NCBI GenBank assembly: GCA_035502185.1
Contig: DATJUT010000011.1
Coordinates: 17,228 to 81,227 of the forward strand
DNA from: Gemmatimonadales bacterium
GTDB taxonomy: Bacteria; Gemmatimonadota; Gemmatimonadetes; Gemmatimonadales; JACORV01
Length of the DNA: 64,000 nt
Reading direction: 5' to 3'
Below, in pieces: positions 28,154 to 58,120 of this stretch. A program made the translations under genes and the position numbers. The first letter of the stretch is position 1. Each line of letters starts with the position of its first letter. Below the pieces are notes generated by a model that had not been told where the DNA came from, searched no databases, and was given only the letters and a program-made list of their open reading frames with translations.

Positions 28154-30292
28154 CTAGTGCTTCACCAGGTCGGCGGGCGACCTCGGCTTGAGCGTCCAGG
28201 TGCCCGAGCCGGTGGGCACGAGTATCCCGACGATGTCGAACACGTTGCTGACCACGTACACGCCCGGGACGACGAACCCGCCCAAGGCATCCAGGACGAC
28301 CGTGAGGTTCCCGCTGCCGTCCGAGACGGTCATCGTGTAGTTGCCCAGGACCAGGGCGGTCGCGCTCACCGTGGCGTTCAGCACCAGCACGAGCTGCGCG
28401 TCGCGCGTCCCGCCCACCGCGTTCGCCGCCGCCGCCGTGGTCAGCGTCGGCGCCGCCGGGAAGAGCCCGCGCCCGAGCGCCGTCGCGGTGCCGCCGTCCA
28501 GCGTCGGCTGGCCGCTCCGCGTGGACGTCACGCCCTGCACGCGCACGGAGTCGCCCGCCGCGACGGTGGTCCGCAGCCGCGTCAGCCGGATCGCCCCCGA
28601 CGTGTCGGCCAGGCTCACGGTGGTATCCGAGTAGGTGCTCGAGCTGTTGAGCGCCGTGCCGATCACCGTCACCGTCAGTCCCGGCCCGAGCAACCGCGCC
28701 GCCCGGATGCTGATGGGCGTCGGCGGAATCAGGGTCAGGTCCGCGGACGACCGCGGCCTCAGCTGCCACACGCCGGGGCCGGTGGCCGCCAGCACCCCCA
28801 GCAGGTTGAACTTGGCGCCCGGCACGTACTTCCCGGGCAGCTGGGCAGGCTGGAAGGCCGCGTCGGCGGTCCCGTCCAGCTGGACCTGCAGCGGCCCGCT
28901 GCCGTCGCTCACGGTGAGCAGGAAGCTGGTCGAGGTGCGCGACGTGTCGGTGATCGTCGCGTTGTTCACGATCACCATCTGGGCGTCGCGGGCGCCGCCG
29001 GCCGCGCCCGCGGCGACGAAGGTCGTCAGCGTCGCCGCCGTGGGGAAGAAGCCGCGACCCAGGGCGGTGGTCGTGCCGCCGTCGAGGGTCGGCTGGCCGT
29101 TGCGGCTGGCCGTCGTGCCCCGGACCCGCACCGAGTCCCCCGCCGTCACCGTCGTGCGCAGCCGGGTCAGCCGGATCGCGCCCGAGGTGTCGGCGATGAA
29201 CACGCTGCTGTCGGCGAAGGTCGTGGAGCCGTTGAGCGCGACGCCGACGACCGACGCCGTCCGGCCGGTGGGGAGCAGGCGCGCGGCGGCGATGCTGATC
29301 ACCGGGGGTGGAATCAGGCTCGCGTCCACGGCCGAGCGCGGCCGCAGCCGCCAGGTTCCCGTCCCCGTGGGCACCAGGACGCCGAGCAGGTTGAAGCTGC
29401 TCCCCGGCACGAAGTTGCCCGGGAGGTTCACCGTCGTGAACGCCGGATCGGCCGTCTGGTCCAGCTGTACCACCAGCGATCCGCTGGCGTCGGCCACGGT
29501 CAGCACGAAGCTCTGGGGCGTCCGGGCCGTGTCGGTGACGGTGACGCCACTCACGCTCACCAGCTGGGCGTCCAGGGTGCCGCCGGCGGCCGCCGCCGCC
29601 GCCGCCGCCGTCAGGCCCGTGGCGGTCGGGAGGTGCCCCGGCCCCAGCGCGAACACGGTCGGGTCGTTCAGCACCGGCTGGCTGTCGCGCACGCCGAGGG
29701 TGCCGAGCAGCCGCAGGCTGTCGCCCGCCGCGAAGGCGGAGCGCGCGCGCGCCACCCGGAGGCCGCCGGACGTGTCGGCGATGTCGGTCGTCGTGTCGGC
29801 GAACGCCGTGCCGGACGCGAGGGCGACGCCGACCACGAAGACCTTGCGGCCGGCCGGCAGCGCCCGCGCCTGCGCCATCGTCACCAGCGGGCGGCCGGCC
29901 AGGACGTTGATCCGCGAGGTGGCACCGGGCGCCACCGTGAAGGTCTGGCTGTCGGTCCGCACCAGCACCAGGGTGTCGGCGAAGGTCGTGGTATCGAGCA
30001 CCAGCGAGTAGTCGCCCACGGGAACCGCGCTGAACACGAAGGTCCCGTTGGCGGCGGTGGTCTGCGTCAGGCCGATGTCCTGCCCGCCGGAGTGCACCAG
30101 CCGCACCTTGACGTGGCCCAGCGAGTCGTCGCCGGCGTCGATCACGCGGGAGCCGTTGGCGTCCAGCAGGACGGCCCCGGTCACCGTCCCGGTGCTGCCG
30201 AGCGACGTGACGTGGTTCTCGCCGGCGTTGGTGCAGCCCAGCACCGCGCCGGCGGCGACGGCCAGGGCCCGGAGCAGCGCGGCGCGCCGCAT
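28154..30292 (-). CDS. Lipoprotein with an N-terminal CarboxypepD_reg-like beta-sandwich and three tandem ~190-aa repeats
   Basis: This is the 3' part of tracked ORF 28154..30619. It begins MRRAALLRALAVAAGAVLGC (lipobox). The repeats end in ...WRLRPRSAVDASLI, ...WQLRPRSSADLTLI and ...WTLKPRSPADLVKH. There is a TGATG overlap with the upstream OMP stop. Confidence 0.75.
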   Translation of the reverse strand: MRRAALLRALAVAAGAVLGCTNAGENHVTSLGSTGTVTGAVLLDANGSRVIDAGDDSLGHVKVRLVHSGGQDIGLTQTTAANGTFVFSAVPVGDYSLVLDTTTFADTLVLVRTDSQTFTVAPGATSRINVLAGRPLVTMAQARALPAGRKVFVVGVALASGTAFADTTTDIADTSGGLRVARARSAFAAGDSLRLLGTLGVRDSQPVLNDPTVFALGPGHLPTATGLTAAAAAAAAGGTLDAQLVSVSGVTVTDTARTPQSFVLTVADASGSLVVQLDQTADPAFTTVNLPGNFVPGSSFNLLGVLVPTGTGTWRLRPRSAVDASLIPPPVISIAAARLLPTGRTASVVGVALNGSTTFADSSVFIADTSGAIRLTRLRTTVTAGDSVRVRGTTASRNGQPTLDGGTTTALGRGFFPTAATLTTFVAAGAAGGARDAQMVIVNNATITDTSRTSTSFLLTVSDGSGPLQVQLDGTADAAFQPAQLPGKYVPGAKFNLLGVLAATGPGVWQLRPRSSADLTLIPPTPISIRAARLLGPGLTVTVIGTALNSSSTYSDTTVSLADTSGAIRLTRLRTTVAAGDSVRVQGVTSTRSGQPTLDGGTATALGRGLFPAAPTLTTAAAANAVGGTRDAQLVLVLNATVSATALVLGNYTMTVSDGSGNLTVVLDALGGFVVPGVYVVSNVFDIVGILVPTGSGTWTLKPRSPADLVKH
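28157..29893 (-). repeat. Three tandem coding repeats of about 580 bp (aa 134-327, 328-522, 523-712 of the lipoprotein)
   Basis: Blocks recur in the protein, for example ADTSGAIRLTRLRTTV(T/A)AGDSVRV and FNLLGVL...TG.G.W.L.PRS. In the DNA the boundary strings gatcaccgggggtggaatcagg (~29.3 kb) and gatgggcgtcggcggaatcagg (~28.7 kb) are about 580 bp apart. Confidence 0.8.
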
Positions 30293-33222
30293 CAGAAGTT
30301 GAACCTCAGGCCCGCCTGCACCGTCGCGCCGGGCGTGCTGCGGGCGAGCACCTTGCCGAAGTTCGGGTTCGCCACCAGCGGCACGGTCACGACGCCCACG
30401 CCGTTGGTGGTGAGCGCCCGGGTCGGATCGATCAGGTACAGGGCCCGGTCGATGACGCCGGTGTTGGTGCTCACCAGGTTGAGGCCGTCGACGACCAGCG
30501 ACAGCGGAGCGTGCACCAGCGTGGACAGGCCGATCACCAGCCGCGCGTCCAGGCTGGTCACCGCCGGCCCGCGGCACGAGTTGCGGGACGCGAACTGCCC
30601 GACCTGCGACTTGAGGCACGACTGCCCGCCCACCACCGCGGCCGCGCCCGACACGGTGTCCGAGACGAAGGCGGGGTCGTTGCCCGCCGCGCCGTCCCCG
30701 TTGGCGTCCACGCCGTCACGGAAACCCGGCGTGAAGGGCAGGCCCGACTGGTACCGCACCAGGCCGGCCAGCTTCACCGAGCCGCTCGACCACTCGAAGC
30801 CCGCGAGCGCGCGGTGCGGCACGTCGAGATCCGACCGCCCGTTCCGCCAGTCGGTGGTGCCGGCGCCGGTCGTGAGCGGCGGCGCCATCTGCGCGTCCGG
30901 CACGCTGCCCCCGAGGCCCGGCAGGTTGTCGGTCGTGTGCGAGAACGTGTAGCTCGCCCACACGCTGAGGCCCTGCTCCCGCAGGCGCTCCAGCGAGATC
31001 GTCAGGCCCCAGTAGTCCGAGGAGCCCGTCGGGTCGAGCGCCCACACGCGGTCGAACGCGCCGAACTGCCGGTTGCTCCCCGGCGTCGCCACCAGCAGGG
31101 AGCCGTCCTGCTGCAGCGTCCCGTAGATCGCGCGGCCGAACTGATCGGTGAACTGCGGGCTGGTGAGGAGGTTCAGGTCGGTGCGCCGCGGCAGGAAGTC
31201 GGTGTGGCGGTACTGGCCGGCGACCTGGACCGACGTCCCGGACGCGAGCGCATGCGCGATGCTGAAGCCGGCCCGGGAGGTCCGCGGTGCCTGGAAGTGC
31301 GAGTTCACGAGGCTCAGCACCGGCCCCGTGATCGGCGCGGCGGTGAAGTCCGGGACGGCCGGCCAGGGGCCGAACACGCCGACGCCGCGCCGCATCTCCG
31401 CGGTGCCGTCGTGGTTGAGGACCTCGGCCAGCACCGAGGGATCGACGCTCTCCGACGCGGTTCCCGCGTCCCCGCGCAGCAGCCAGTCACGCCGGGCGCC
31501 GGCGGACCACACGAACGAGAACCGCGGGTTCACCTGCGTCTTGAGCGACGGGATGCCCTGGTTGGGGATGCCGCTGACCCGGAGCCAATCCGCGTCCGGC
31601 GTGACGCCGCCGGTGGGCCAGTGCTCGCGCTCGAGCCGCAGGCCGACCAGCATGTCGAGGCCCGCGACCGGCGACCACGAGTCCTGGGCGAAGAAGGCGG
31701 TCGCGCTGATGGTGAACGTGGCGTCGGGCACGCCGCCCACCGACTGGACGAACGCGCCGCGGCCGAGGCCGAGATCGGCGGTGCTCCCGAACAGGAACTC
31801 GCCGCTCCGCAACGGATCGTAGGTGATGTCGTGGTTGGTCCAGTCGGCTGCAGCGCCGAACTTGAGCGCGTGGATGCCGAGGCGGTACAGCAGGGCCGCC
31901 GACGCCCGAGTCGCGTCGCGCTCGAACCGGCCGGGCACCGCCCCGTCGGCGCCGGCCGACAGCCCGTCCGCGGTCAGCACGGTGAGCGGCAGCGACGGCG
32001 CGGAGTAGTCGCGCAGGCTGCGATCGATGGCGAGCGACACCTCGGAGCCGAGGCGGGCGTTGAAGCGCGAGTTGAACGCCAGCGAGGCGGAGACGTCGCG
32101 CGCGTCGAGCGAGGTACCGAGTCCGGTGAAGCGCCCCTCGCCGAGGCCGACGTCGCTGGCCGTGGCGTTGGTCACGGCCGCCCGCAGCGCGATCGACTGC
32201 CCGCGCGCGATCTCCCAGTCGAACCGGCCGAAGGCGGTGATCACGTCGGTCTGCTGGGTCAGCGCCTTGAGGTACTCCGAGAGCTGCGGCGCGGCCGCGA
32301 CCACCGCGCTCGCCCCCGTGTCGTCCGGCCACGGCGACTTGAGCGGCGTGTTGATGCGCCGGGCGTCCACCCCGACCAGCCCCCACGCGGTGTCGCGCAC
32401 CACCGGCCCGCCGGCCACCACGGCGCCCCGATACCCGTTGGTGCCGGCGTCGGCGAAGCCCCGCACCTGCCCGGAGCGCGGCCCGCGCGCGCTGAACGCG
32501 CTGAGGAGCTCGCCGCCGATGCCCGGCCACTCGACGTCGGTTCCCGACGCCAGCTCCACGTGCTGCAGGCTCGCCAGCGGCAGCCCCAGCGTCGACCAGT
32601 CGGAACGCGACACGCCGGGGCTCGCCGCCGCGGTCCGCGGAATGCCGTCCACGCCCACCCAGCCGAGCCGGTCCGGGAGTCCCTCCATCGCGAGGCCGCC
32701 CGTGGTGGCCGACGCCAGGGCGGCGACCGACGAGACGCGGCCCAGCGGATCCACCAAATCGGCGAGGTCCGTTCCCGGATCCCACGTCCCGCGGGCGAGC
32801 GACGCGTGGAGCGCGCCCTCGACGAAGGACATCGTATCCGCCTGGGTGACCGGAGGATCCGCCGGCGTGAGCCGCAGGTCGAGCGTGACCACCGCGGCCG
32901 GGCTCACCGACACGTCGAGCACGATCAGCGGGCGGTAGCCCAGGCGCTCGGCCCGGATGTCGTAGCGCCCGGGCAGCAGCGCCGGGCTGCGGTACGCGCC
33001 GAGGCCGTCCGAGAGGACCGACCGCGCCCACGCCGTGGCGTGGTGCGTCATCGTGACGCGAACTCCCGCGATGATCTGACCGGAGGTGGAGACCGCGGCG
33101 CCGCGGATGGCGCCCGTCGTGACCGTCTGCGCCCGGGCTCCGGGAGCGGCCACGAGGCCGATCGCGATCGCACCCGCGATGGCCGGCACCATCCACTCCC
33201 GTGACAGGCGCGGCAAGCTCAT
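30292..33222 (-). CDS. Outer-membrane beta-barrel protein, TonB-dependent-receptor-like with an N-terminal CarboxypepD_reg domain
   Basis: Tracked ORF 30292..33306; the start is taken at MSLPRLSREWMVPAIAGAIAIGLVAAPGARAQ (signal peptide). It contains GVRVTMTH...LLPGRYDIRAERLGY (Cna/CarboxypepD-like). The C-terminus GLRFNF ends in an aromatic residue, as in OMP barrels. Confidence 0.7.
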   Translation of the reverse strand: MSLPRLSREWMVPAIAGAIAIGLVAAPGARAQTVTTGAIRGAAVSTSGQIIAGVRVTMTHHATAWARSVLSDGLGAYRSPALLPGRYDIRAERLGYRPLIVLDVSVSPAAVVTLDLRLTPADPPVTQADTMSFVEGALHASLARGTWDPGTDLADLVDPLGRVSSVAALASATTGGLAMEGLPDRLGWVGVDGIPRTAAASPGVSRSDWSTLGLPLASLQHVELASGTDVEWPGIGGELLSAFSARGPRSGQVRGFADAGTNGYRGAVVAGGPVVRDTAWGLVGVDARRINTPLKSPWPDDTGASAVVAAAPQLSEYLKALTQQTDVITAFGRFDWEIARGQSIALRAAVTNATASDVGLGEGRFTGLGTSLDARDVSASLAFNSRFNARLGSEVSLAIDRSLRDYSAPSLPLTVLTADGLSAGADGAVPGRFERDATRASAALLYRLGIHALKFGAAADWTNHDITYDPLRSGEFLFGSTADLGLGRGAFVQSVGGVPDATFTISATAFFAQDSWSPVAGLDMLVGLRLEREHWPTGGVTPDADWLRVSGIPNQGIPSLKTQVNPRFSFVWSAGARRDWLLRGDAGTASESVDPSVLAEVLNHDGTAEMRRGVGVFGPWPAVPDFTAAPITGPVLSLVNSHFQAPRTSRAGFSIAHALASGTSVQVAGQYRHTDFLPRRTDLNLLTSPQFTDQFGRAIYGTLQQDGSLLVATPGSNRQFGAFDRVWALDPTGSSDYWGLTISLERLREQGLSVWASYTFSHTTDNLPGLGGSVPDAQMAPPLTTGAGTTDWRNGRSDLDVPHRALAGFEWSSGSVKLAGLVRYQSGLPFTPGFRDGVDANGDGAAGNDPAFVSDTVSGAAAVVGGQSCLKSQVGQFASRNSCRGPAVTSLDARLVIGLSTLVHAPLSLVVDGLNLVSTNTGVIDRALYLIDPTRALTTNGVGVVTVPLVANPNFGKVLARSTPGATVQAGLRFNF

Positions 33223-33290
33223 TGGTCCGGGCAAACTTAGAGCCGGGGACCCAAAGGGGCAATGCGCCGCCCGGGAGCAGGCGCGGCAAC

Positions 33291-33896
33291 GTGACGCAGG
33301 ATACATTCGTGGCTGTGGCGCCCGAAGAGCTGCCGTCCCCGCCGCGCACCGCGCCGAACTTGCCCGGGCGCGTACTGCACTGGTGGCGGCGCCGGACGGC
33401 CCTGCGACGCCTGTCCCGGCGTCCTCACCCGCCCCCGCTGCTGTTCCTCTGCCACGGCAACCTGTGCCGCAGCCCGTTCGCCGCGGGCGTGGCGCGCCAG
33501 CTGCTCCCCTCGTGGGTCGACGTCGCCTCGGCCGGGTTCCTGGCGCCGGGACGCCGTTCGCCGCCCGAGGCGCTCGCGGCCGCGGGCGAGTTCGGCGTCG
33601 ACCTCTCGGCTCACCGCTCGGAGATCCTGACCGTCGACCATCTTCGCAACACGGACCTCGTGGTGGTGATGGACCGCGACCAGCGCCGCCGCCTCGTCAC
33701 CATGCAGCCCGCCCTCGCGAGCCGCGTCGTGCTCCTCGGCGACCTCGATCCCGTGCCCACGGCCGAGCGCGACGTGCCGGACCCCGTCAACCAGCCGCTC
33801 GACGCATTTCGCTCAGCCTACGGCCGCATTCACCGCTGCGTCCGCGCCCTCGCCGGCGCGTGGAGCCAGCAAGCCGGCACCCAGCCCCGCGGCTGA
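33291..33896 (+). CDS. Low-molecular-weight protein tyrosine phosphatase
   Basis: Tracked ORF 33201..33896. It has the C(X)5R(S) P-loop LLFLCHGNLCRSP and a DP motif (VPDPV). I prefer in-frame GTG 33291, because ATG 33201 would overlap the divergent OMP start. The start is uncertain. Confidence 0.8.
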   Translation: MTQDTFVAVAPEELPSPPRTAPNLPGRVLHWWRRRTALRRLSRRPHPPPLLFLCHGNLCRSPFAAGVARQLLPSWVDVASAGFLAPGRRSPPEALAAAGEFGVDLSAHRSEILTVDHLRNTDLVVVMDRDQRRRLVTMQPALASRVVLLGDLDPVPTAERDVPDPVNQPLDAFRSAYGRIHRCVRALAGAWSQQAGTQPRG

Positions 33897-35018
33897 GGCC
33901 GCGAGCTGCGCGGCCGGCGTGGGCAGCAGACCCACCACCGGCGCCAGCGCGGCGACGCCGCCCAGCGCGACGAGCGCCGTCACGGCGCCCGCGCCGTTCC
34001 TCCTCACCAGCAGTCCCACCGGCAGCAGGAGCAGCGCCGCGAACCCGCAGTCGAGCGCAGCCTCCGCGGCGGCCGGCAGGCCGGGGACGAAGCGCACCAG
34101 CGCCCACGCCCGCCCGGCCGGATAGCCCAGGCCGCAGCGCTCGCGGCCGTCGAGCGCGAGGCAGTAGCCGGATCTCCCGCGGCGCGCCTCCAGCGCGAGC
34201 GTGTCGCCCGGACGGGCGGCCGCGAGCGCGCCGCGCCACCGCAGGTCCGGCTGAAAGAGACCCAGGTCCGCCGCCCGACGGCGCACCCGGAGCACCAGGT
34301 CGTCGCGGTCCGCCCCCACGACCAGGATCTCCCGGTAGGCGGAGTCGGCGACGCTGAACAGCGGCGCGAGCCGCGCGGTGCGCGGACCCGCGACGGCCCG
34401 CACGACCAGCGGCTCGCCCGCCGCCAGGCGCTCGCGCGCCCCACGCGAATCGTCGAGACGCCCGTCGCCGAGCGGCGTGCCGCCGAGGGCGACGCTCAGC
34501 AGCCGGCCCCGGTACCACTCGAACTGCCCCAGCGCCGCCGTCCACTGGCCGTACCAGACGGTCGGGGGCAGGCTCGGGCGCAGGGCGAAGCCGGTGGCCG
34601 CGATCACCGCCCAGGCGGCCGCAGCGGCGAGCAGCCCGGCGCGCGCGGAGCGGCGCGCGGCCCACCGGCGCCGCGCGAGCACGACCAGCGCCGCGCCCAG
34701 CGTGGCCGCGACGACGTCGCCCAGGGTGGAGTCGCGGCCCGGGATGGCCAGCTGCGCGATCTCGATCAGCGCCGCGAGGAGGAACGCGGCCGCCACGATC
34801 CGCCGGCCGGCCACGCCGGACCACACGAGCCCGGCGGCGAGCGGCACGAACAGCAGCACGTTGGCGATGAAGTCGGACAGGCCGAGGTCGCCGCACAGCA
34901 GGCACCAGCGGAACGTCCCGGCATCGGGGCCGGCCGCCGGCGTGAGCGTGAGGCCCAGGACCAGAGCGAGTCCCGCCGCGGCGACCGCGACGCCGATCGC
35001 GCGCCGTCCGCCGATCAC
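33813..35018 (-). CDS. VanZ-like membrane protein with a C-terminal domain of unknown function
   Basis: This is the 3' part of tracked ORF 33813..36374. It contains LSDFIANVLLFVPLAAGL and IEIAQLAIPGRDSTLGDV (VanZ-like) and several hydrophobic helices. The GTG 35018 start is tentative. Confidence 0.6.
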   Translation of the reverse strand: MIGGRRAIGVAVAAAGLALVLGLTLTPAAGPDAGTFRWCLLCGDLGLSDFIANVLLFVPLAAGLVWSGVAGRRIVAAAFLLAALIEIAQLAIPGRDSTLGDVVAATLGAALVVLARRRWAARRSARAGLLAAAAAWAVIAATGFALRPSLPPTVWYGQWTAALGQFEWYRGRLLSVALGGTPLGDGRLDDSRGARERLAAGEPLVVRAVAGPRTARLAPLFSVADSAYREILVVGADRDDLVLRVRRRAADLGLFQPDLRWRGALAAARPGDTLALEARRGRSGYCLALDGRERCGLGYPAGRAWALVRFVPGLPAAAEAALDCGFAALLLLPVGLLVRRNGAGAVTALVALGGVAALAPVVGLLPTPAAQLAASAAGLGAGLLAPRAGEGADAAVNAAVG

Positions 35019-35056
35019 GGCGCGCGCCTGGTTCGGCCGGGGCCGGAACCCATCGT

Positions 35057-36283
35057 CTACGGGCGGGCGGGTGCGGCCGGCAGGGGGCCGGGCGCGAACG
35101 CCACCACCCGGGGATGGAGGTTCGCGATCCCCCGCACGTCGCGGTCGGCCGCGACGATCAGCGACGCGGCGGGGAACCAGCGATCGTACTCCCGCTGGAC
35201 GTCGTAGCGGACCAGGGCCGCTCCGACGTGGAAGGTGCCGGGCGCGAGGTGCAGGTCGAGCTCCACCGAGCAGTGGAAGGACTCGCCGGCCGGGAGGCTG
35301 ATGGCCTCCAGGCCGAGCCGCTGGGTGGAGGTGTCGAACACCCCGACCGCGCTCCCGTCCTGCAGGTACAGGGTGACGGACATCCGGTCGCAGGCCGTGC
35401 GTGCGGCGATCTCCACGTCCACCCACGCGCGCTCGCCGGACTGGAATACCGTGCGCGGGCCGTCGGCGCCGCGGACGGCGACGCGCGCCACGTACGCGTC
35501 GCGGCCTTCCACGTCGTGGCGGCCGGCGAGCGCGCCGACCAGGTACGCCTCGACCACCCGCTCCGGCTCGCCCGCCGCGGCGACCCGGCCGTGGTCGAGC
35601 AGGAGCGCCCGGCTGCACAGGTCGGTCACCGCGCGCAGGTTGTGCGACACGAACACCACCGTGGTGCCCTGGCGGATCACCTCGCGCATCCGCTCCATGC
35701 AGCGCCGCTGGAAGACGAGGTCGCCGACGCTGAGGACCTCGTCCACCAGGAGCACGTCGGGATCCACGTGCGCCGCGACGGAGAACCCGAGGCGGGCGAA
35801 CATCCCCGACGAGTAGCGCTTCACCGGCGTGTCCATGAACTCCTCGAGGCCCGAGAACGCGACGATCGCGTCGAACCGGCGGCGGATGTCCTCGCGCGCC
35901 ATCCCGAGGATGGTGCCGTAGAGGAACACGTTCTCGCGCCCGGTGAGGTCGGGATGGAACCCGGCGCTGACCTCGATCAGCGCCGAGAGCCGGCCATGGA
36001 TGCGCACCGCGCCGCGCGTGGGCCGCAGGATGCCGCCCAGCAGCTTGAGGAGGGTGCTCTTGCCCGCGCCGTTGCCGCCCACCACGCCGAGCGCCTCGCC
36101 GCGGCCCACGGCGAACGACACGTCGTGCAGCGCCCAGAACTCGCGGGCCGCCAGCTCCGGCGGCGGGCCCCGGCGCACCACGCGGCGCACCAGCGCGGGC
36201 ACCAGGTCGCGGAGCGAATCGTGCAGCTCGCCGCGGCGGAACTTCTTGGAGACGCGCTCGACCTCGACGGTGGTGTCGACCAT
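35057..36283 (-). CDS. ABC transporter ATP-binding protein, Wzt/TagH-type, with a ~160-aa C-terminal extension
   Basis: This is the 3' part of tracked ORF 35057..36643. It begins MVDTTVEVERVSKKF and contains GVVGGNGAGKSTLL (Walker A), YSSGMFARLGF (signature-like) and LLVDEVLSVGD (Walker B). A beta-rich tail follows (VDVEIAAR...SVELDLHLAPGTFHVGAALV). Confidence 0.9.
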   Translation of the reverse strand: MVDTTVEVERVSKKFRRGELHDSLRDLVPALVRRVVRRGPPPELAAREFWALHDVSFAVGRGEALGVVGGNGAGKSTLLKLLGGILRPTRGAVRIHGRLSALIEVSAGFHPDLTGRENVFLYGTILGMAREDIRRRFDAIVAFSGLEEFMDTPVKRYSSGMFARLGFSVAAHVDPDVLLVDEVLSVGDLVFQRRCMERMREVIRQGTTVVFVSHNLRAVTDLCSRALLLDHGRVAAAGEPERVVEAYLVGALAGRHDVEGRDAYVARVAVRGADGPRTVFQSGERAWVDVEIAARTACDRMSVTLYLQDGSAVGVFDTSTQRLGLEAISLPAGESFHCSVELDLHLAPGTFHVGAALVRYDVQREYDRWFPAASLIVAADRDVRGIANLHPRVVAFAPGPLPAAPARP

Positions 36284-36288
36284 CGGGC

Positions 36289-37083
36289 TCAGATCCGCTC
36301 CGCGAACCAGGGCTCGAGCCGCCGGAAGGCGAGCACGCCGCCCGCGCAGCAGGCCGCCGCCACGCCCAGCGCATACGCGGTCCACGCCGGATCCGGCGCC
36401 CGGCGGCTCACCACGGCGTCGGCCAGGCCCACCAGGAGCGGCGCCACCGGGTTGAGGAGCGCCGTCGTGGCGTGGCGGCCGAAGATCTCGACCGGGTAGA
36501 ACACCGGCGTGAAGAAGACCGCGAAGGTGATCACCACGTCCACCAGGTACTTCACGTCCCGAAAGAACAGCGCCGCGGCCGACAGGAACATCCCCAGGCC
36601 GAGGCACAGCACCACCAGGCCGAGCACCAGCAGCGGCACCCACAGGAGCGCCAGGCTCGCGCCGACGCCCGCCAGCGCGAGGACCACCGTCAGCACGGCC
36701 GTGGCCACGCCGAAGTCGGCGAACTGCGACAGCACCGCCGCGACCGGGAACACCTCACGCGGCAGGTAGACCTTCGTCACCAGCTCGCTGTTGGCGATCA
36801 GGCTGTTGGTGGCGAAGCGCAGCGACGCGACGAAGAACGCCCACGGCACGGACTTGACCGCCACCGCCGCGAGGTTCCGGGTGTCCACGCTCCGGCCCGC
36901 GTACCAGCCCAGACCGTACTGGACCGCGACGCCGGCCCCGACCACCAGCGCGGGCATCAGGATGGCCCACAGGAATCCCATCACGGACTGCTTGTACTTG
37001 ATCCGGATGTCGCGCCAGGCCAGCATCGCCACCAGGTCCCACCAGCGCCGGAGGCCGCGGCGGCCGCTCACCGGCTGGCTCAT
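36289..37083 (-). CDS. ABC-2 type transporter permease (Wzm/TagG-like)
   Basis: This is the 3' part of tracked ORF 36289..38085. It begins MSQPVSGRRGLRRWWDLVAMLAWRDIRIKYKQSVMGFLWAILMP and has 6 hydrophobic segments. There is an ATGA overlap with the upstream stop. Confidence 0.9.
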   Translation of the reverse strand: MSQPVSGRRGLRRWWDLVAMLAWRDIRIKYKQSVMGFLWAILMPALVVGAGVAVQYGLGWYAGRSVDTRNLAAVAVKSVPWAFFVASLRFATNSLIANSELVTKVYLPREVFPVAAVLSQFADFGVATAVLTVVLALAGVGASLALLWVPLLVLGLVVLCLGLGMFLSAAALFFRDVKYLVDVVITFAVFFTPVFYPVEIFGRHATTALLNPVAPLLVGLADAVVSRRAPDPAWTAYALGVAAACCAGGVLAFRRLEPWFAERI

Positions 37084-38207
37084 GCGGCCCTCCCTCGCGC
37101 GCGTTCGCGCGCCACGGCGCGCCAGCCGCGATATGCCAGGCGCGCCACCCGGCCGGCAGCCCAGCGACGCGCCTGCCTCAGCGGACCCGTGCCCTCCACC
37201 ACCGGCGTGGCCGCGATGCCGAGCTCCGTGCGCGTCCCCTCCTCGAGCAGCCGCTCCCGGAAGCCGTCGCCACCGCGGCCGCCCAGGACCGTCAGCCTCC
37301 ACGCCAGCGCGCGGGCCACGTCGAACTCCGGCGCGTCCCCGCTCACCGGCGCCGGCGGCGGCCCGGCCAGGTCGGCGGCGGCCCGCAGCCACGCCCGCGC
37401 CAGGCGCGGGTCCACCTCCGCGCCGGTCGCGACTCGCGCAGCGAGCCGTTCCCAGTCGAGCGGCAAGCCCGAGGCGAGGATGGCCGCGGCGTCCAGGAAG
37501 CAGCGCAGCCGGAAGCCGGAGGCGCCGGCGACGAGCGCGTGAGTGAGTCCGTGCCACAGCAGCTCGGTCGCGGGCGGCACCCGGACGCGCACGCCGTGCC
37601 ACTCCAGCTCGTCGCCGCCGCTCGCCCTGAGCCAGGCCTCCGCGGCCGGGACCGCGCCTCCCGTGGACCGGTGCAGCTCCACGCCCACGCCGTGCGGCCC
37701 CTGCAGCGGCGGCGGATGGTAGTGGCCCGCCGGAGTGCGGGACGGGCTGCCGGCGAACGGCCAGCCGCGCGCCCGGAGGTCGTCCCAGACCCCCTGCACG
37801 TGCTCCGCCGGCAGCAGCACGTCCACGTCCACCGTCAGGCGCGCGTCGGCGCCCGGGTAGCGGGAGGCCGCCGCGCGCCGCGCCGTGCCCTTGATGAGCA
37901 CGCACGGAACGCCGCGCTCGCCCAGGTAGCGCACCAGCCCCTCCGCCTCGGCGTCCACGAGCAGGCATCGCGCCTGCTCGGCCGCCGCCCGGCCGCGGAG
38001 CGCCGTGCGCAGCTCGGCGGGAAGCGCGTCCTCGATGCCCAGCGCCCCGAGGCGCCGCAGCAGCCACTGCGTTCCGCCTTCCCACGCCAGCGCGCGCGCC
38101 ATCGGACGGCCGGCCACCCGGCTCCAGGCCGCGCGCAGGTCCGCCCCGTCCGGCGCCCCGCGGAGCCTGAGGGTGCGCACCAGGGTCACGGCTCCCTCCG
38201 CGATCAT
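37080..38207 (-). CDS. Nucleotidyltransferase-fold protein (uncharacterised NTP_transf_5 / PF14907-like)
   Basis: This is the 3' part of tracked ORF 37080..38426. It begins MIAEGAVTLVRTL and contains LIKGTARR...LTVDVDVLLPAEH...HHPPPL...VELH, as in that family. There is an ATGA overlap with the B2-like stop. Confidence 0.7.
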   Translation of the reverse strand: MIAEGAVTLVRTLRLRGAPDGADLRAAWSRVAGRPMARALAWEGGTQWLLRRLGALGIEDALPAELRTALRGRAAAEQARCLLVDAEAEGLVRYLGERGVPCVLIKGTARRAAASRYPGADARLTVDVDVLLPAEHVQGVWDDLRARGWPFAGSPSRTPAGHYHPPPLQGPHGVGVELHRSTGGAVPAAEAWLRASGGDELEWHGVRVRVPPATELLWHGLTHALVAGASGFRLRCFLDAAAILASGLPLDWERLAARVATGAEVDPRLARAWLRAAADLAGPPPAPVSGDAPEFDVARALAWRLTVLGGRGGDGFRERLLEEGTRTELGIAATPVVEGTGPLRQARRWAAGRVARLAYRGWRAVARERARGRAA

Positions 38208-38551
38208 CCGGCCGCCGGCGATGGGAACCGCGCGATCTCGGTGAATCGCGCGCTGTGCGCCGGATCCGGCTCGAGGTAGGGCGCCCCGTCCTTCACCAGC
38301 CACGCGTGCGCCGCCAGCGCGCCCGCCTCGTCCTTGCGCACGCCGATGTGCAGCGCCACCGGCCGGCCGGCCCGGCGCAGCAGCCAGTAGAGCACGACGC
38401 CGCGCTTGAGGCAGGTGTAGCGCCACGGCGGCGGCAGGCGATACAGCAGCTGGCCCACGTAGGCGGCCAGCAGGGTGTCCTCGGGCGCGGTAGGGCTCGC
38501 GCGCCGCGGCGTCGCGGCGGCCGCCCGCGCGATCCGCTCGAGCGAAACCAC
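38204..38551 (-). CDS. Transglutaminase-like cysteine protease, lasso-peptide B2-like (PF13471-like)
   Basis: Tracked 115-aa ORF with a GTG start. It contains YTCLKRGVVLYWLLRRAG...LHIGV...LAAHAWLVKDG (Cys...His pattern of McjB-C/B2 proteins). The frame is open upstream of the GTG with plausible N-terminal sequence but no ATG/GTG/TTG, so the 5' end is uncertain. Confidence 0.7.
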   Translation of the reverse strand: MVSLERIARAAAATPRRASPTAPEDTLLAAYVGQLLYRLPPPWRYTCLKRGVVLYWLLRRAGRPVALHIGVRKDEAGALAAHAWLVKDGAPYLEPDPAHSARFTEIARFPSPAAG

Positions 38552-38622
38552 CGACAGCAGCGGCGGAAGCGCGGCGCAGGCCGCCAGCGCACGCAGGCGC
38601 CAGGCGGGCGGGAGGTCCCCGC

Positions 38623-38898
38623 TCAGGGGCGCTCCTCCACCACCAGCACGCCCGTCTTCACGCCGCGCTCGACGAACTCGCGGGTCGTGTCGGTCGCCAC
38701 CGCCTCGGTCACCTCGTACCTGGCCGTGAGCACCGCCACCAGCTCGTCCAGGGTCTTCGGCGTCGCGAGCGCCTCGAGCAGGTCGAGGCCGCTCTCGCTC
38801 ACCGTGTAGTAGCGCCGCGTGCCGAGGTGGAGGGCCACGCCCTCGCCCTCGAGCGCCGTCAGCCTCAGCTCGGGATGCCGCCGGTAGCGGCGCGTCAT
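38623..38898 (-). CDS. PqqD-family peptide chaperone (RRE; lasso B1-like)
   Basis: This is the 3' part of tracked ORF 38623..39837. Its sequence is MTRRYRRHPELRLTALEGEGVALHLGTRRYYTVSESGLDLLEALATPKTLDELVAVLTARYEVTEAVATDTTREFVERGVKTGVLVVEERP. There is an ATGA overlap with the kinase-like stop. Confidence 0.75.
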   Translation of the reverse strand: MTRRYRRHPELRLTALEGEGVALHLGTRRYYTVSESGLDLLEALATPKTLDELVAVLTARYEVTEAVATDTTREFVERGVKTGVLVVEERP

Positions 38899-39815
38899 GG
38901 CACGAGCTCCATCAGCAGGTCGCGGCGGCGGAACAGGTCGGGCGCCAGGGCGACGCGGTAGCACCGCGCCTGGCGCGCGAGCGCGGTGAGCAGATCGAGA
39001 TGCTCCTGCGCCAGCTCCGGCTCGAGCACCACCCAGGCCGACCAGCGCACCAGCTCCGCCAGCGCCTCCCGCGCCGGGACCGGCGCCGCACTGGTGCGCT
39101 CGCCCTCGATCCGCGGGAACACCAGGATGCGAGGCTCCACGCGCGGCGCCCAGGTGCCGCCGAGATCCTCGGGGAAGAACGCACTCTTCCGACCGCCGCG
39201 CGCGGCGGTGCCTCCCGCGAGGCCGAGCAGCGCGCGGCCGGCGGGCCGCAACGCGACCGGGGCGCGCTGCGCCACGGCCTCGACGCTCGCCCGGCTCCGC
39301 ACCAGGAAGGCGGCGTCGTCGCACCCCACGGCCCAGCCCCACGAGGCCAGCAGCGCCGCCGTGGTGGACTTGCCCGACTGGGCGTTGCCCGCGAACAGCC
39401 AGTCGCGGCCCCGCGGGTCGCGGGCGAGGGCCGCGTGCACGTGGTGCCAGCCGGCGCGCCGCAACAGCAGGATCAGGACCACCGAGAAGAAGCTCTGCGC
39501 CAGCGGCTCCGGGTCCGCCAGCGCCGCGGGCGTGACCTCGACGACGGCGTCGTGCGCGCCGCCCGCGATCCGCGCGCGCGCCGGTGCGGCCAGCCAGCGG
39601 ACCCGGACGTCGCCCTGCGGCGGGCCGCTGCGGATCTCGATCCCGGGCTGCAGAAACGGCGCCCGCTCGTCCACCTCGTCTTCGGAAAGCGCCGGCACGG
39701 CCCGCAGCTCGATGCCCAGGGGCACCGGCGGCGCCAGGCGCATGCCGTCGATCCACGCCGCGACCCAGCTCACCAGCGCGTCGTCGTCCCCCGTCACCCC
39801 GATTCCCGCGCGCAT
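38895..39815 (-). CDS. HPr-kinase-C-terminal-like P-loop protein (HprK-related kinase)
   Basis: Tracked 306-aa ORF. It contains HVHAALARDPRGRDWLFAGNAQSGKSTTAALLASWGWAVGCDDAAF (Walker-A-like GKST followed by DD), as in HprK-related kinases of RiPP and EPS loci. Confidence 0.75.
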   Translation of the reverse strand: MRAGIGVTGDDDALVSWVAAWIDGMRLAPPVPLGIELRAVPALSEDEVDERAPFLQPGIEIRSGPPQGDVRVRWLAAPARARIAGGAHDAVVEVTPAALADPEPLAQSFFSVVLILLLRRAGWHHVHAALARDPRGRDWLFAGNAQSGKSTTAALLASWGWAVGCDDAAFLVRSRASVEAVAQRAPVALRPAGRALLGLAGGTAARGGRKSAFFPEDLGGTWAPRVEPRILVFPRIEGERTSAAPVPAREALAELVRWSAWVVLEPELAQEHLDLLTALARQARCYRVALAPDLFRRRDLLMELVP

Positions 39816-39834
39816 CAGCTAAGGGTGCGGGGGG

Positions 39835-39870
39835 CAAAGCAAACGCGCCAGCCCGCGAGGGGCTGGCGCG
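39835..39870 (-). terminator. Intrinsic-terminator-like hairpin between the small peptide ORF and the kinase-like gene
   Basis: An 11-bp perfect GC-rich stem (39844-39854 cgcgccagccc pairing with 39860-39870 gggctggcgcg) has a 5-nt loop. On the minus strand it is followed by TTTGCTTTG (39843-39835). It begins 24 nt after the peptide stop and ends 19 nt before ATG 39815. Confidence 0.5.
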
Positions 39871-39893
39871 TCCGCGACGCTACACTTCCGACG

Positions 39894-39995
39894 CTAGGTG
39901 GGGAGTCCGCCGCCGCCGGTTTCGCTCACCAGCGTCACCTCAGCCAGCGAGGCCTCCTCATTCAACGTCGGTGGCACGAAGGGCTTCCTCTCCAT
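39894..39995 (-). CDS. Candidate RiPP precursor peptide, 33 aa: MERKPFVPPTLNEEASLAEVTLVSETGGGGLPT
   Basis: It is too short for the ORF track; I translated it codon by codon from ATG 39995 to TAG 39894-39896. AAGGAGG at 40013-40007 lies 11 nt upstream. F6/P9/L11/T21 match the lasso leader positions Y-17/P-14/L-12/T-2 if cleavage follows L22. It sits directly upstream of the K-B1-B2 genes on the same strand. Confidence 0.55.
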   Translation of the reverse strand: MERKPFVPPTLNEEASLAEVTLVSETGGGGLPT

Positions 39996-40006
39996 AGACG
40001 GCTGTG

Positions 40007-40013
40007 CCTCCTT
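40007..40013 (-). promoter_or_regulatory. Shine-Dalgarno sequence (AAGGAGG) for the small peptide ORF
   Basis: The minus strand reads CCTCGGAAGGAGGCACAGCCGTCTATG. This is one of the clearest Shine-Dalgarno matches I noted by eye in the window. Confidence 0.5.
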
Positions 40014-40029
40014 CCGAGGGGCTGAAGTT

Positions 40030-40058
40030 CCGGATTCAGGGGACGTCGGTGAATCCGG
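40030..40058. repeat. Perfect 9-bp inverted repeat (ccggattca, 11 nt, tgaatccgg) just upstream of the peptide-gene RBS
   Basis: Read directly: 40030-40038 and 40050-40058 are exact reverse complements. The spacer contains a gacgtc palindrome. It lies in a locally less GC-rich stretch (caattcgcaattgg follows). Confidence 0.7.
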
Positions 40059-54091: not shown

Positions 54092-56566
54092 CTATTCGCG
54101 CAGCACCTCGACCGGGCTGACCCGGGCGGCCCGCAGCCCGGGCACCCAGCAGGCCACCAGCGCCAGCGCCACGAGCACGGCCGCCGCGGCGACCACGGTC
54201 GCGGGGTCCATCGCGCCGACGCCGAACAGGAGCGACCGGAGCCACCGGCCCTCGAGCAGCGAGAGCCCCAGGCCGATCGCCGTCCCCGCCGCGACGTAGG
54301 CCATCCCGCGCCCCACGACGAGCCGGGTCAGCGACGCCGGCGCCGCGCCCAGCGCGAGCCGGACGCCAATCTCCCGGCGGCGCTGCCGGACCACGTACGA
54401 CATCAGCCCGAAGATGCCGAGCGCGGCGAGGAGTGCGGCCGCCGCCGCGAAGCCGCCCAGCACGCCCGTCCAGCGCTTCGGCTCGGCGAGCGACGCCTCG
54501 AGGCGGCCCCGGAGCGTCGTTTCGGTCACCGGCAGCTCGGGGTCGAGGGCGCCGACCGACTCCCGCAGGGTCCGGAAGATCGTGCCCGGCCGCGCCGCCG
54601 TGCGGACCACGAGGTCCACGGCCCGGCCGTTGCTCTGCGTCAGGGGATCGTAGACCGCCTCGCCGGAGCCCGCCATCCCGGCGTACTTCACGTCGCCCAC
54701 GACGCCGACGATCGTGGTGCGTGGACAGGCGTAGCAGCCTCCCGAGACCAGCTGCTTGCCGACCGCGGACTCGCGTGGATAGTAGTGCTCGGCCCACGAC
54801 CGGCTCACGACGACGACCGGAGGCGCGCTCCCGGAGTCGCCGTCCGTGAACAGCCGGCCGTCGAGCAACGGCACGCCCAGCGTCCGGAAGTAGCTCGCGG
54901 TCGCCGCCATCCACGGGGCCACCGGCTCGGCCACCCCCGCCGGCACCGGCCGATCCACCAGGTTGAAGTTGTTGGTTCCGCCCCCGTTGTCCGGAGGCAG
55001 CGCGTCCGTGAGCCCCACGGCCTCGACGCCCGGCACCCGGGCCGCCTGCTGCTCCAGCCTGCGGAAGAAGGCCTGTGCGCCGGCGTAGTCCGGGTAGCGC
55101 GCCGCGGGCAGGGCCACGCCGACGCCCAGCAGGCCGGCCGGATCGAAGCCCGGATTCACGCGCTCGAGCCGCAGGAAGCTGTTGAGCAGCAGCCCCGCCC
55201 CCAGCAGCAGCGGCAGGGCGAGCGCGAACTCGGCGGCCACCAGCGCCCCGCGCATCAGGTTGGTCGGCCGGCTCGTGCCCGACCGCACGCTCTGGGCCGG
55301 GGCCGCGCCCGCGACGCCGCCGCCGACCACCGCGAGCACCGGCGGGATGGTCACCAGCGCGCCGCTCACCAGCGTCGCGATCGCGATCAGGGCGACCAGA
55401 CGCGTGTCGAACGCGACCTCGGCGAGCAAGGGGAGGTTCGGCGCCACCGCGCCGACGCCGCGCAGGGCCGCGGCGGCTACGCCCAGCCCCACGAGGGCGG
55501 ACAGCGCCGCGAGCAGCGCGCCCTCGGTGGCCACCAGGCGGGCCAGGCGACGGCGCGACGCGCCGAGCGCGGCGCGGACCCACAGCTCCTGCCGGCGCGC
55601 CGTCGCCCGCACCAGCAGCAGCGTGGCCACGTTGGCCACCGCCGCCAGCAACACCAGCGTCACGGCCAGTGCCACCAGCGTCACCGGCTGGTCAGCCTTG
55701 CCGACGATGGCCTCGCGCAGCGGGACCGGCGTGAGCTGCGCCGTGCTGTCGTGCCAGTCCCCGTACAGCGGCAGCATCCGGCGGCTGATGGCCGCCAGGT
55801 CGCGCCGCGCGTCCTCCCGCGTGAGGCCCGCGCGCAGCCGGGCGACGCCGCGCAGCCAGAACGGCCCGCGCCGCGTCGGCGGCCGCGGCTGAAGCGCCGG
55901 CCAGGCCGCGGCCGGGACGCCCGCCAGCTCGTCCACGCCCGGGGGCAGGACGCCGATCACCGCGTGGCTGACGCCGTCGATGCTCACGGCGCGACCGATC
56001 GCGGCGGACCCGCCACCGAATGCACGGTCCGCGAACCGGTGCGAGACGACCACGACGGCCGGCGCCCCGGGCGTCTCGTCGCGCGCCGCGAGGAGCCGGC
56101 CGACCTCCGGCCGCACGCCGAGCGCCGCGAAGAACCCCGCCGTGGCGCGACCGACCTTGATCCGCTCGGGAGCGCCCGCGCCCGACAGGGCCGCGTCGCC
56201 CCGCTGCACCACGCCGAACGCGTCGAAGCTCCGCTGCTGGTCACCGATCGCCCGGTAGTCCGCCGTGGACAGCGCCCAGACGTTGGTCGGCGAGTTCCGC
56301 TCGACGATCTGCACCAGCCGAGCGGCGTCCGGATACGGCAGGTCGGACAGCAACAGGGCGTCCGCGACCCGGTACACCGAGGCGCTGGCGCCGATCCCCA
56401 GCCCGAGCACGGCGACGACCGCCGCCGCGAACCCGGGATTGCGACGCAGGGCGCGCAACGCGAAGCGCAGGTCGGCCGCCACCTCCTCGAGCCGGCCACC
56501 GGCTCGGGCGCCGCGCCAGCGCTCCCCGCTGCCGCCGTGAGGGTGCGGAACACGCGCGCGCGTCAT
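54092..56566 (-). CDS. Duplicated FtsX/MacB-type ABC permease (ADOP family-like)
   Basis: Tracked ORF 54092..56662, started at MTRARV (ATG 56566). It contains DLRFALRALRRNPGFAAAVVAVLGLGIGASA and two FtsX-like C-terminal blocks (..RRRELWVRAALGA.. and ..RRREIGVRLALGA..). Confidence 0.85.
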   Translation of the reverse strand: MTRARVPHPHGGSGERWRGARAGGRLEEVAADLRFALRALRRNPGFAAAVVAVLGLGIGASASVYRVADALLLSDLPYPDAARLVQIVERNSPTNVWALSTADYRAIGDQQRSFDAFGVVQRGDAALSGAGAPERIKVGRATAGFFAALGVRPEVGRLLAARDETPGAPAVVVVSHRFADRAFGGGSAAIGRAVSIDGVSHAVIGVLPPGVDELAGVPAAAWPALQPRPPTRRGPFWLRGVARLRAGLTREDARRDLAAISRRMLPLYGDWHDSTAQLTPVPLREAIVGKADQPVTLVALAVTLVLLAAVANVATLLLVRATARRQELWVRAALGASRRRLARLVATEGALLAALSALVGLGVAAAALRGVGAVAPNLPLLAEVAFDTRLVALIAIATLVSGALVTIPPVLAVVGGGVAGAAPAQSVRSGTSRPTNLMRGALVAAEFALALPLLLGAGLLLNSFLRLERVNPGFDPAGLLGVGVALPAARYPDYAGAQAFFRRLEQQAARVPGVEAVGLTDALPPDNGGGTNNFNLVDRPVPAGVAEPVAPWMAATASYFRTLGVPLLDGRLFTDGDSGSAPPVVVVSRSWAEHYYPRESAVGKQLVSGGCYACPRTTIVGVVGDVKYAGMAGSGEAVYDPLTQSNGRAVDLVVRTAARPGTIFRTLRESVGALDPELPVTETTLRGRLEASLAEPKRWTGVLGGFAAAAALLAALGIFGLMSYVVRQRRREIGVRLALGAAPASLTRLVVGRGMAYVAAGTAIGLGLSLLEGRWLRSLLFGVGAMDPATVVAAAAVLVALALVACWVPGLRAARVSPVEVLRE

Positions 56567-56768
56567 CGTCGCTCTCCTGCGGCTCGGGGACGGATCACTC
56601 GTGGTTAGACGGGAAGGCGGCCCGGAGGGTTGCACGGCCCGCGTCGATGGGCATGGCGGCAAACGGGTATGGCGGCAGACGGGGAGAACGCTCTACGCCT
56701 TCCGGCCGCCGGGGACCGATCGCGATCCGCATCGGTCCGGCCCGTCCGGCAGCCGCACGGCCCGCTGA

Positions 56769-58112: not shown

Positions 58113-58120
58113 CGGCCGCC

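Follow-up and report, generated by a model that had tools for sequence, protein, structure and literature searches.

A cyclase-less peptide-maturation cassette of lasso type, paired with a Wzm/Wzt-like exporter, in a Gemmatimonadales bacterium

What might a lasso-type peptide-maturation gene set make when no cyclase accompanies it? The question is raised by a locus in a 64-kb stretch of DNA from a soil-type Gemmatimonadales bacterium (GenBank assembly GCA_035502185.1, contig DATJUT010000011.1, positions 17,228 to 81,227; hereafter the window), which has a GC content of 70-76% and whose best protein matches are to Gemmatimonadales metagenome-assembled genomes. Eight minus-strand genes at 33813-39995, each with a reading frame backed by the GC3 frame plot, encode in the 5' to 3' direction a peptide of 33 amino acids (aa), an HprK-like kinase (K), a PqqD-type protein (B1), a Cys protease (B2), a nucleotidyltransferase-fold enzyme (N), a Wzm-like permease, a Wzt-like ATPase with a Wzt_C domain, and a VanZ-like protein. 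On the basis of sequence and of analogy with characterized systems, this cassette is probably a cyclase-less operon for a peptide made by ribosomes and then modified post-translationally (RiPP), one that descends from lasso clusters of the paeninodin/pseudomycoidin type, works like the clusters for linear polyphosphorylated peptides (LPP) of Bacillota, and makes a linear phosphopeptide.

The cassette and its recurrence

The features of the cassette, in the direction of transcription, are as follows.

40007-40013, minus strand: Shine-Dalgarno-like AAGGAGG, 11 nt upstream of the precursor ATG, read directly from the sequence.
39894-39995, minus strand: precursor gene, 33 aa, ATG start, encoding MERKPFVPPTLNEEASLAEVTL and then VSETGGGGLPT (predicted leader/core split); the open reading frame (ORF) was also called by an independent pipeline.
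39839-39875, minus strand: GC-rich hairpin with a 16-bp stem and a 5-nt loop, then TTTG, inside the 78-nt spacer between the precursor gene and K.
38895-39815, minus strand: K, P-loop kinase-like protein of the HprK/PEP carboxykinase (PEPCK) fold, 306 aa, assigned from invariant residues, profile, and AlphaFold2 (AF2) fold.
38623-38898, minus strand: B1, discrete PqqD-type RiPP recognition element (RRE), 91 aa (PF05402, E = 5e-12).
38204-38626 (CTG start) or 38204-38551 (GTG start), minus strand: B2, lasso-type transglutaminase-like Cys protease (PF13471 Transglut_core3, E = 4e-20).
37080-38207, minus strand: N, 375-aa enzyme of nucleotidyltransferase fold (PF14907 NTP_transf_5, E = 3e-25), corresponding to PsmN and LppN.
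36289-37083, minus strand: Wzm-like ABC-2 permease, 264 aa (PF01061 ABC2_membrane, E = 4.6e-10), its start overlapping the stop of N (ATGA).
35057-36283, minus strand: Wzt-like ABC ATPase, 408 aa, with Wzt_C as its C-terminal domain (PF00005 ABC_tran, E = 2.7e-19; PF14524 Wzt_C, E = 1.4e-10).
33813-35018, minus strand: VanZ-like membrane protein, 401 aa (PF04892, E = 1.7e-9, residues 50-114).

A scan of one genome per species yielded 57 related loci, 56 in Gemmatimonadota and one in Armatimonadota. The genes for K, B1, B2, and N stood in the same order in 48 of the 57 by tblastn, with K identities of 39-92%, and when the neighboring proteins were clustered the only recurrent members were K, B1, B2, N, and the ABC-2 permease/ATPase pair. 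A preliminary description of this DNA, made from its sequence, had set a test beforehand, namely that homologous cassettes should carry a small upstream ORF with an F/YxxPxL...T motif. This expectation was borne out: a hidden Markov model of the leader matched 62 ORFs in 44 other loci and the window, all of them on the strand of K and upstream of it, at 1-3 copies per locus, and the loci without a match were mostly those with K at a contig end. An arrangement in which the K-B1-B2-N order is kept in so many of the loci, and in which the leader is invariably found upstream of K and on its strand, goes far beyond chance.

The ATGA stop/start overlaps that had been listed at 38895-38898, 38204-38207, and 37080-37083 are present in the sequence. 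The accompanying statement that the other gaps span 5-71 nt held for the 5-nt gap between the Wzm and Wzt genes but not for the peptide-K gap, which is 78 nt (the Wzt-VanZ gap is 38 nt). The supposed 71-nt gap between B1 and B2 is probably illusory because the homologues begin at the position of the CTG and residues before the GTG are conserved. The open B2 frame extends as far back as the stop of B1, with no in-frame ATG, GTG, or TTG upstream of 38551, R12 and P22 are among the conserved residues preceding the GTG, and the homologues start with GTG or ATG at the position aligned with CTG 38626. The start of B2 is likely to be this CTG, within a CTGA that overlaps the B1 stop, with GTG 38551 as the alternative.

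Profile searches supported the domain assignments that had been proposed for B1, B2, N, the permease, the ATPase with Wzt_C, and the VanZ-like protein, whereas K was weaker by sequence and is backed by profile and fold. K had no Pfam match at E < 0.01 and reached only 24-25 bits against the NCBIfam models ScmC and HprK_rel_A, below cutoff (TIGR04352, 24.1 bits against a cutoff of 200); TIGR04355, which has the same 200-bit cutoff, gave no match at E < 0.01. When a family profile of 121 K sequences was compared with the PDB, HPr kinases made up four of the five matches, including the two best (E = 0.03), in alignments that cover the P-loop and the Asp-Asp segment. The AF2 model of K (pLDDT 94.3, pTM 0.90) had PEPCKs as its top Foldseek matches, and in structural classification PEPCKs and HprK share a common catalytic fold. 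H125, H127, K149 (in GKS), D166, and D167 were invariant in the 121 homologues and correspond to the His-Lys-Asp-Asp set of the lasso-tailoring kinases, residues that are essential in those enzymes (PMC9266682) and that include D158/D159 of PsmK (PMC6993621). More distant, second-tier relatives of K matched the HprK_rel_A, HprK_rel_B, and genuine HPr(Ser) kinase models, best of all TIGR04352. The assignment of K as an HprK-like kinase, although weaker by sequence, is supported by its profile, predicted fold, relatives, and residues. Membership in the HprK_rel_A/B or ScmC SynChlorMet families was rejected, as the scores lie far below cutoff, and the HprK-related-A/B and HPr-rel-A names that had been mentioned are not supported, the kinase and the PqqD protein both falling below the curated thresholds.

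B1 scored below cutoff against the lasso PqqD models of NCBIfam and had no match at E < 0.01 to the HPr-rel-A PqqD model; its best sequence matches in the PDB were a lasso PqqD chaperone (9x90_B) and TbiB1. B2 scored 70.7 bits against the NCBIfam lasso B2 model NF033537 (cutoff 33), and its C72, H107, and acidic E119 were at least 95% conserved among homologues. The same level of conservation (at least 95%, 38 homologues) was found in N for K106-G107, D127-x-D129, E177, and H179; no relative of N was found among PDB sequences.

The Wzm/Wzt-type exporter with Wzt_C was confirmed at the domain level and its pairing with the cassette recurs in other loci. Among the 32 loci with enough downstream sequence, an ABC-2 permease and ATPase lay at most 3.5 kb after N in 19, co-directional in 3 (including the window) and convergent in 16, and all three of the convergent ATPases that were scanned (in L013, L018, and L025) carried Wzt_C. 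The best NCBIfam matches of the exporter proteins were TagH, galactan Wzt, and galactan Wzm, all far below the equivalog cutoffs. At the level of domains, an ABC2_membrane permease with a Wzt_C ATPase is what the Wzm/Wzt O-antigen, teichoic-acid, and galactan ABC-2 exporters have; apart from the low scores, the pair differs from them in its partner, a RiPP cassette rather than glycosyltransferases, of which there were none in the conserved neighbor set of the related loci. Because the exporter is operonic with the RiPP cassette or convergent on it, its cargo is more likely the modified peptide than a glycan. VanZ-like homologues occurred only in L002, L003, L048, L052, and L058, and since the VanZ-like gene accompanies Wzm/Wzt only in the window's own sub-clade, its product is probably not a core component.

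Precursor, core, and the missing cyclase

The precursors upstream of K share a leader with the consensus (K/R)KPFVxPxLxEEASLxxVTL, which is followed by a hypervariable core. In the 52 unique precursor sequences, Thr occupied position -2 in all 52 and Leu position -1 in 51, with the spacing that is canonical for lasso leaders (F/Y-V-x-P-x-L/I/V...T-L). The entropies at the three codon positions were 0.75, 0.62, and 1.44, respectively, and in the codon of the invariant Thr the first two positions were fixed while the third varied. Since the third codon position varies most, the precursor ORF is under purifying selection as a protein. A chance small ORF was ruled out by its conservation, its strand and position specificity, and the codon-position entropy.

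The cores range from 4 to 40 aa, and five of them are 7 aa or shorter (SIVS, VSPPPV, QTSAVL, FTGLNT, and MLISITL). Core position 2 was Ser or Thr in 44/52 (background 18%), and the C-terminal residue was Ser or Thr in 26/52, the other half ending in G, L, A, V, P, M, I, F, Q, N, C, or D. Asp or Glu was present at core positions 7-9 in nine cores, and only three began with G, A, S, or C. The window core VSETGGGGLPT has neither a lasso-type first residue nor, as had been pointed out before, an Asp/Glu at positions 7-9, its only Glu being at position 3.

In the sub-clade made up of L018, L019, L022, L026, L029, L034, L035, L037, L038, L040, and L056, the cores begin with ISGGG or VSGGG and run into long Gly/Arg/Asn/His-rich tails that end in GHGHGHGHSS-like repeats. 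The His-rich sequence of these tails suggests metal binding or a follower region. An SGGGxPT element, semi-conserved in this sub-clade, is common to the window core (GGGGLPT).

No Asn_synthase domain was found by a Pfam scan of every called gene in the 64-kb window. A six-frame search of the window and the 57 related loci, flanks of up to 10 kb included (815 kb in total), found no SGGxDS, the PP-loop signature common to asparagine synthetase B and the lasso cyclases, and a looser PP-loop pattern gave a single, irrelevant match. The cyclase-less lasso-type maturation set that had been proposed, consisting of precursor, K, B1, B2, and N, is thus what the locus contains. Against the hallmarks of a lasso biosynthetic gene cluster (BGC), we found a leader with Thr at -2 and both B1 and B2, and neither a cyclase C nor a lasso-type core; a canonical lasso cluster was ruled out on account of the absent cyclase and the incompatible cores. 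Because short cores that lack ring-forming residues cannot make a lasso, the best reading of the product is a linear, leader-cleaved, phospho-modified and possibly glyco-modified peptide, in keeping with the preliminary description.

The 78-nt spacer that separates the precursor gene from K had a minimum free energy of -40.1 kcal/mol (z = -2.4), and nearly every related locus had a GCCAG...CTGGC hairpin after its last precursor gene. Compensatory changes were seen at pair 2 (CG to TA), pair 4 (AT to GC), and pair 6 (GC, CG, or AT). Conservation of this kind fits an attenuator that would set a high precursor:enzyme ratio, and the hairpin is likely to be a partial terminator or attenuator between the precursor and the enzyme genes. 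An Rfam search of the window gave no family match at the hairpin or anywhere else, and strict scans for sigma-70 promoters and intrinsic terminators around the precursor made no calls. Even between distant loci the outer stem (CGCGCCAG...CTGGCGCG) kept its sequence and not only its pairing, and it could double as a putative palindromic protein-binding site.

Candidate product and modification site

The route had been put forward as possibly undescribed, an idea overtaken by the report of Popov et al. (Nat Commun, May 2026) on cyclase-less LPP in Bacillota (PMC13381572). LPP clusters, which often lie in capsule loci, combine the precursor and a discrete RRE with four further proteins: an HprK-like kinase, a PF14907 NTP-transferase, an SpI-like peptidase, and an MsbA-like pump (PMC13381572). 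Their kinase adds 1-4 phosphates to core Ser3 and leaves an S3T variant unphosphorylated, no activity of LppN was seen on heterologous expression, neither the end product nor its function has been established, and LPP and paeninodins were stated to be restricted to Bacillota (PMC13381572). The Gemmatimonadales cassette resembles these clusters in having no cyclase, in its 1-3 precursors with a conserved [Y/W/F]xxP leader and variable C-termini, in its combination of an HprK-like kinase, a discrete PqqD RRE, a PF14907 NTP-transferase, and an ABC exporter, and, in the window, in having a polysaccharide locus nearby, as LPP clusters often do. The LPP motif YxxPxVLxHQxIxFETxxS aligned without gaps to FVxPxLxEEASLxxVTLxS of the Gemmatimonadales precursors, in register at the aromatic residue (0), P3, V/L5, I/L11, T15, and S18 and with different residues in between. 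S18 of the LPP motif, which is core S3, is the polyphosphorylated residue; its Gemmatimonadales equivalent would be core residue 2 if the leader is cut after Thr-Leu.

The two systems also differ. The LPP peptidase is an SpI/SipW-like serine enzyme (LppS, the marker by which LPP were discovered), whereas here the lasso-type Cys protease B2 would take that role, and no signal-peptidase (SpI) domain was found in the cassette, the annotated window, or the conserved neighbor families. LPP precursors are cut directly after Thr rather than, as predicted here, after Thr-Leu; the LPP exporter is the MsbA-like half-transporter LppD rather than a two-component ABC-2 Wzm/Wzt pair with Wzt_C; the aromatic residue of the leader motif is Tyr in the LPP consensus and Phe here; the hosts belong to Bacillota and Gemmatimonadota, respectively; and the core of the LppA studied has 45 aa, in contrast to the 4-40 aa found here, many cores being much shorter. 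What is new relative to LPP is the B2 protease, the ABC-2 Wzm/Wzt exporter, and the phylum Gemmatimonadota, so that the cyclase-less kinase/RRE/PF14907 logic of LPP is met in a second phylum, built on lasso B1/B2 and a glycan-type exporter.

The paeninodin and pseudomycoidin (pade and psm) clusters are the closest lasso counterparts. The psm genes are ordered C-A-K-B1-B2-N-D, and PsmK polyphosphorylates the C-terminal Ser while PsmN adds a hexose on the phosphate (PMC6993621). The A-K-B1-B2-N-exporter order here is that of psm minus C, and further likenesses are the split B1/B2 leader peptidase, the His-Lys-Asp-Asp kinase, the PsmN-like enzyme, and the Thr at -2. Unlike those clusters, the Gemmatimonadales family has no synthetase C, no ring-forming N-terminal residue or Asp/Glu acceptor, no conserved C-terminal Ser, and an exporter of another class. 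A more distant likeness is to the HprK_rel_A/B and HPr-rel-A PqqD systems (TIGR04352, TIGR04355), which also combine a distant HprK-like kinase with PqqD and a PF14907 enzyme, but the Gemmatimonadales family has an identifiable precursor and a B2 protease, and K scores 24 bits against their cutoff of 200. The HprK-related A/B systems often occur in exopolysaccharide (EPS) neighborhoods, and we know of no substrate for them.

In the pathway that we propose, the precursor would be made in excess over the enzymes, with the hairpin after its gene attenuating read-through. The B1 RRE would bind the FVxPxL leader motif, as homology suggests, and K would move at least one phosphate from ATP to the core Ser (Ser2 of VSETGGGGLPT), a step to which conservation and the LPP register point. 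N may then extend the phosphate with a sugar or nucleotide in the manner of PsmN, which is the weakest step of the scheme. B1/B2 would cut after Thr-Leu, following the lasso rule of Thr at -2, to give a short linear modified peptide that the Wzm/Wzt pump might export, with Wzt_C, speculatively, recognizing the phosphate or sugar decoration. Core Ser2, three residues after the invariant Thr, is in register with the LPP phosphosite and is matched by Ser or Thr in most of the cores; for these reasons we consider it a likely site, with chances of about even.

Several points weigh against a linear peptide phosphorylated at Ser2 and exported by Wzm/Wzt. The chemistry of the product is assigned throughout by analogy, and the likeness of K to PadeK, PsmK, and LppK rests on profile, fold, and residues, K being only remotely similar in sequence to characterized kinases. 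LppN showed no activity in the sole reconstitution of an LPP pathway (PMC13381572). Position 2 is neither Ser nor Thr in eight of the 52 cores, the adjacent exporter is absent in 13 of the 32 loci, and the sequence covered amounts to 64 kb of the genome, so a distal cyclase is conceivable. Lasso-associated kinases act on the C-terminal Ser, and the modified site could therefore differ from Ser2.

A linear peptide modified instead on a C-terminal Ser or Thr, in the paeninodin/pseudomycoidin manner, has the precedent of PadeK, ThcoK, SyanK, and PsmK, each of which phosphorylates its precursor at the C-terminal Ser (PMC9266682, PMC6993621), and the window core ends in Thr, the residue that the preliminary description had favored. 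We nevertheless regard this as unlikely, and the C-terminal Thr as a poor candidate: half of the cores end in other residues, so a C-terminal hydroxyl is not a family feature, whereas the terminal Ser has been described as extremely conserved in kinase-bearing lasso clusters. The only cyclase-less relative studied is phosphorylated at core S3, and the lack of phosphorylation of its S3T variant argues against a Thr acceptor. It is rather less probable still that the peptide, instead of being secreted free, is a glycan carrier or primer on which K and N build a phospho-sugar linkage, to be extended by EPS enzymes and exported as a conjugate by Wzm/Wzt. In favor of it, an exporter of O-antigen/teichoic-acid type, bearing a carbohydrate-end-binding Wzt_C domain, accompanies 19 of the 32 loci, PsmN-dependent hexose is found on the phosphate of pseudomycoidin (PMC6993621), LPP and paeninodin clusters in Bacilli are often inside capsule loci (PMC13381572), the window cassette has as neighbors a 28-kb EPS locus and a gene for a low-molecular-weight (LMW) phosphotyrosine phosphatase, and the Armatimonadota locus has its K and N genes beside a Wzy_C gene without B1/B2. 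However, polysaccharide genes are not conserved beside the cassette, which elsewhere is flanked by galK-, selA-, valS-, and purH-like, Ser/Thr kinase, and DUF4097 genes, and neither a glycosyltransferase in the conserved set nor, in the remaining 13 of the 32 loci, an adjacent Wzm/Wzt accompanies it. In one form of this idea, to which we attach an equally low likelihood, a phospho-Ser peptide would be the ribosomal anchor of a peptide-phosphoglycan, with K acting on Ser2, N adding the first sugar, Wzt_C recognizing it, and Wzm/Wzt exporting it; if true, this would be a direct link between a RiPP and exopolysaccharide. Any link of the cassette to polysaccharide export or priming is speculative.

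Two other explanations start from the lasso character of the genes. An ordinary lasso cluster with its cyclase C encoded elsewhere in the genome and acting in trans would account for the lasso-type B1/B2, with B2 above the NCBIfam lasso B2 cutoff, and for the canonical leader spacing with Thr at -2, and lasso BGCs are known from some Gemmatimonadota metagenome-assembled genomes (PMC11316326). It is very improbable, as no 7-9-residue macrolactam is possible in cores that go down to 4-7 aa and seldom have the acceptor (9/52) or the first residue (3/52), and no PP-loop motif lies within 10 kb at any of the 57 loci. The least probable explanation is decay, the cassette being what remains of a lasso cluster that has lost its cyclase and no longer has a product. 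The cyclase is indeed absent, the window B2 has no canonical start codon, and the N gene of L012 is split by an insertion; against decay, the four enzymes and the precursor are kept in more than 45 species-level genomes with intact catalytic residues, the precursor is under purifying selection, precursor genes are duplicated with diversified cores, and the genes of the cassette are translationally coupled. In L012 (11615-13805, in a complete Longimicrobiales chromosome) the N gene is interrupted by a 328-aa ORF that, at a guess from its sequence, may be transposase-like, and this locus may be an inactivated copy.

If the cassette does make a linear phosphopeptide, RiPPs of this kind would have a far wider distribution than has been reported, with more than one origin from lasso machinery, and in these genomes a gene labeled "lasso B2" by automated annotation would carry a misleading name. 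Cores as short as these (VSETGGGGLPT, and 4-8 aa in relatives) would be simple substrates for studying the function of the kinase and the PF14907 enzyme. The recurrent Wzt_C exporter offers a testable handle on the suspected link between the peptide and capsule or biofilm.

Relatives of the kinase and surroundings of the cassette

The K profile was also compared with 1.84 billion cluster representatives (clusters defined at 50% identity), of which 48 matched at E ≤ 1e-30, forming a tight family, 1,582 at ≤ 1e-10, and 5,957 at ≤ 1e-3. Six second-tier relatives were examined; for a seventh, P0181, the contigs were only ~1.2-1.4 kb long and showed nothing informative. Four of the six lay beside a PqqD, Transglut_core3, NTP_transf_5, or radical SAM gene, in varied orders; P0170 was accompanied by NTP_transf_5 and GT1, and P0190, on a 1.5-kb contig, had an upstream small ORF as its sole informative neighbor. 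No Asn_synthase was visible around any of the six. Upstream small ORFs of two second-tier relatives carried a like motif (RKQFVEPEV... and KKAYVKPEI...). In this small sample the neighborhoods suggest that cyclase-less kinase/PF14907 cassettes are widespread, and the Gemmatimonadales family may belong, as a single branch, to a very large class of cyclase-less kinase/PF14907/PqqD/B2 systems that spans phyla and in which the Bacillota LPP occupy a small corner.

One metagenomic second-tier locus (L062, 1590-11584) has two small ORFs of 63 and 67 aa that share ...R(K/R)QFVEPEVS.AIKVLKATQFFQQFSDNG..., each after a large LTD-domain protein and adjoining an HprK-like kinase, a GT1 gene, and a PF14907 gene; no PqqD or B2 was found in its 13 kb. 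In the Armatimonadota locus (L057, 9656-13715), a K homologue of 36% identity precedes a PF14907 enzyme and a Wzy_C (O-antigen ligase-like) protein, and B1, B2, and a recognizable precursor are all absent. The kinase/PF14907 pair therefore occurs also in a purely glycan-type setting.

Outside the recurrent set, the flanks of the related loci vary by sub-clade and include Ser/Thr kinase and DUF4097 genes, which were confirmed by Pfam, and galK-, selA-, valS-, and purH-like genes, which were judged by eye from their translations. An EPS context was ruled out as a conserved feature, the flanks being mostly housekeeping-like and EPS genes missing from most loci. In the window itself, a polysaccharide locus at 3-28123 contains GT4 and GT2 glycosyltransferases, sugar-nucleotide enzymes, a pyruvyl transferase, and two Polysacc_synt_3 flippase-like genes. 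It also includes a fused AMP-ligase/carrier-protein/hydrolase gene adjoining a PPTase gene, an acyl-CoA dehydrogenase, DegT and class-III aminotransferases, an FemAB-like GNAT, a DUF3473 polysaccharide deacetylase, and a PIG-L deacetylase, a make-up that we take to be like that of exosortase-type EPS loci. Two large CarboxypepD_reg genes on the minus strand (28154-33234) stand between this locus and the cassette; an outer-membrane beta-barrel domain is present in just one of them, that of 980 aa (30292-33234), and the synteny of the pair is limited to the window's sub-clade. The LMW phosphotyrosine phosphatase gene (33222-33896, plus strand; PF01451, E = 3e-25) is convergent with the VanZ-like gene, which it overlaps by 84 nt at its 3' end, and has counterparts beside the cassettes of L048, L052, and L058, members of the same sub-clade. 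On the other side of the cassette, at 54092-63945, two MacB/FtsX-type permeases and HlyD-family adaptors surround a sigma-54 response regulator and a histidine kinase, a group that is apparently unrelated to the cassette.

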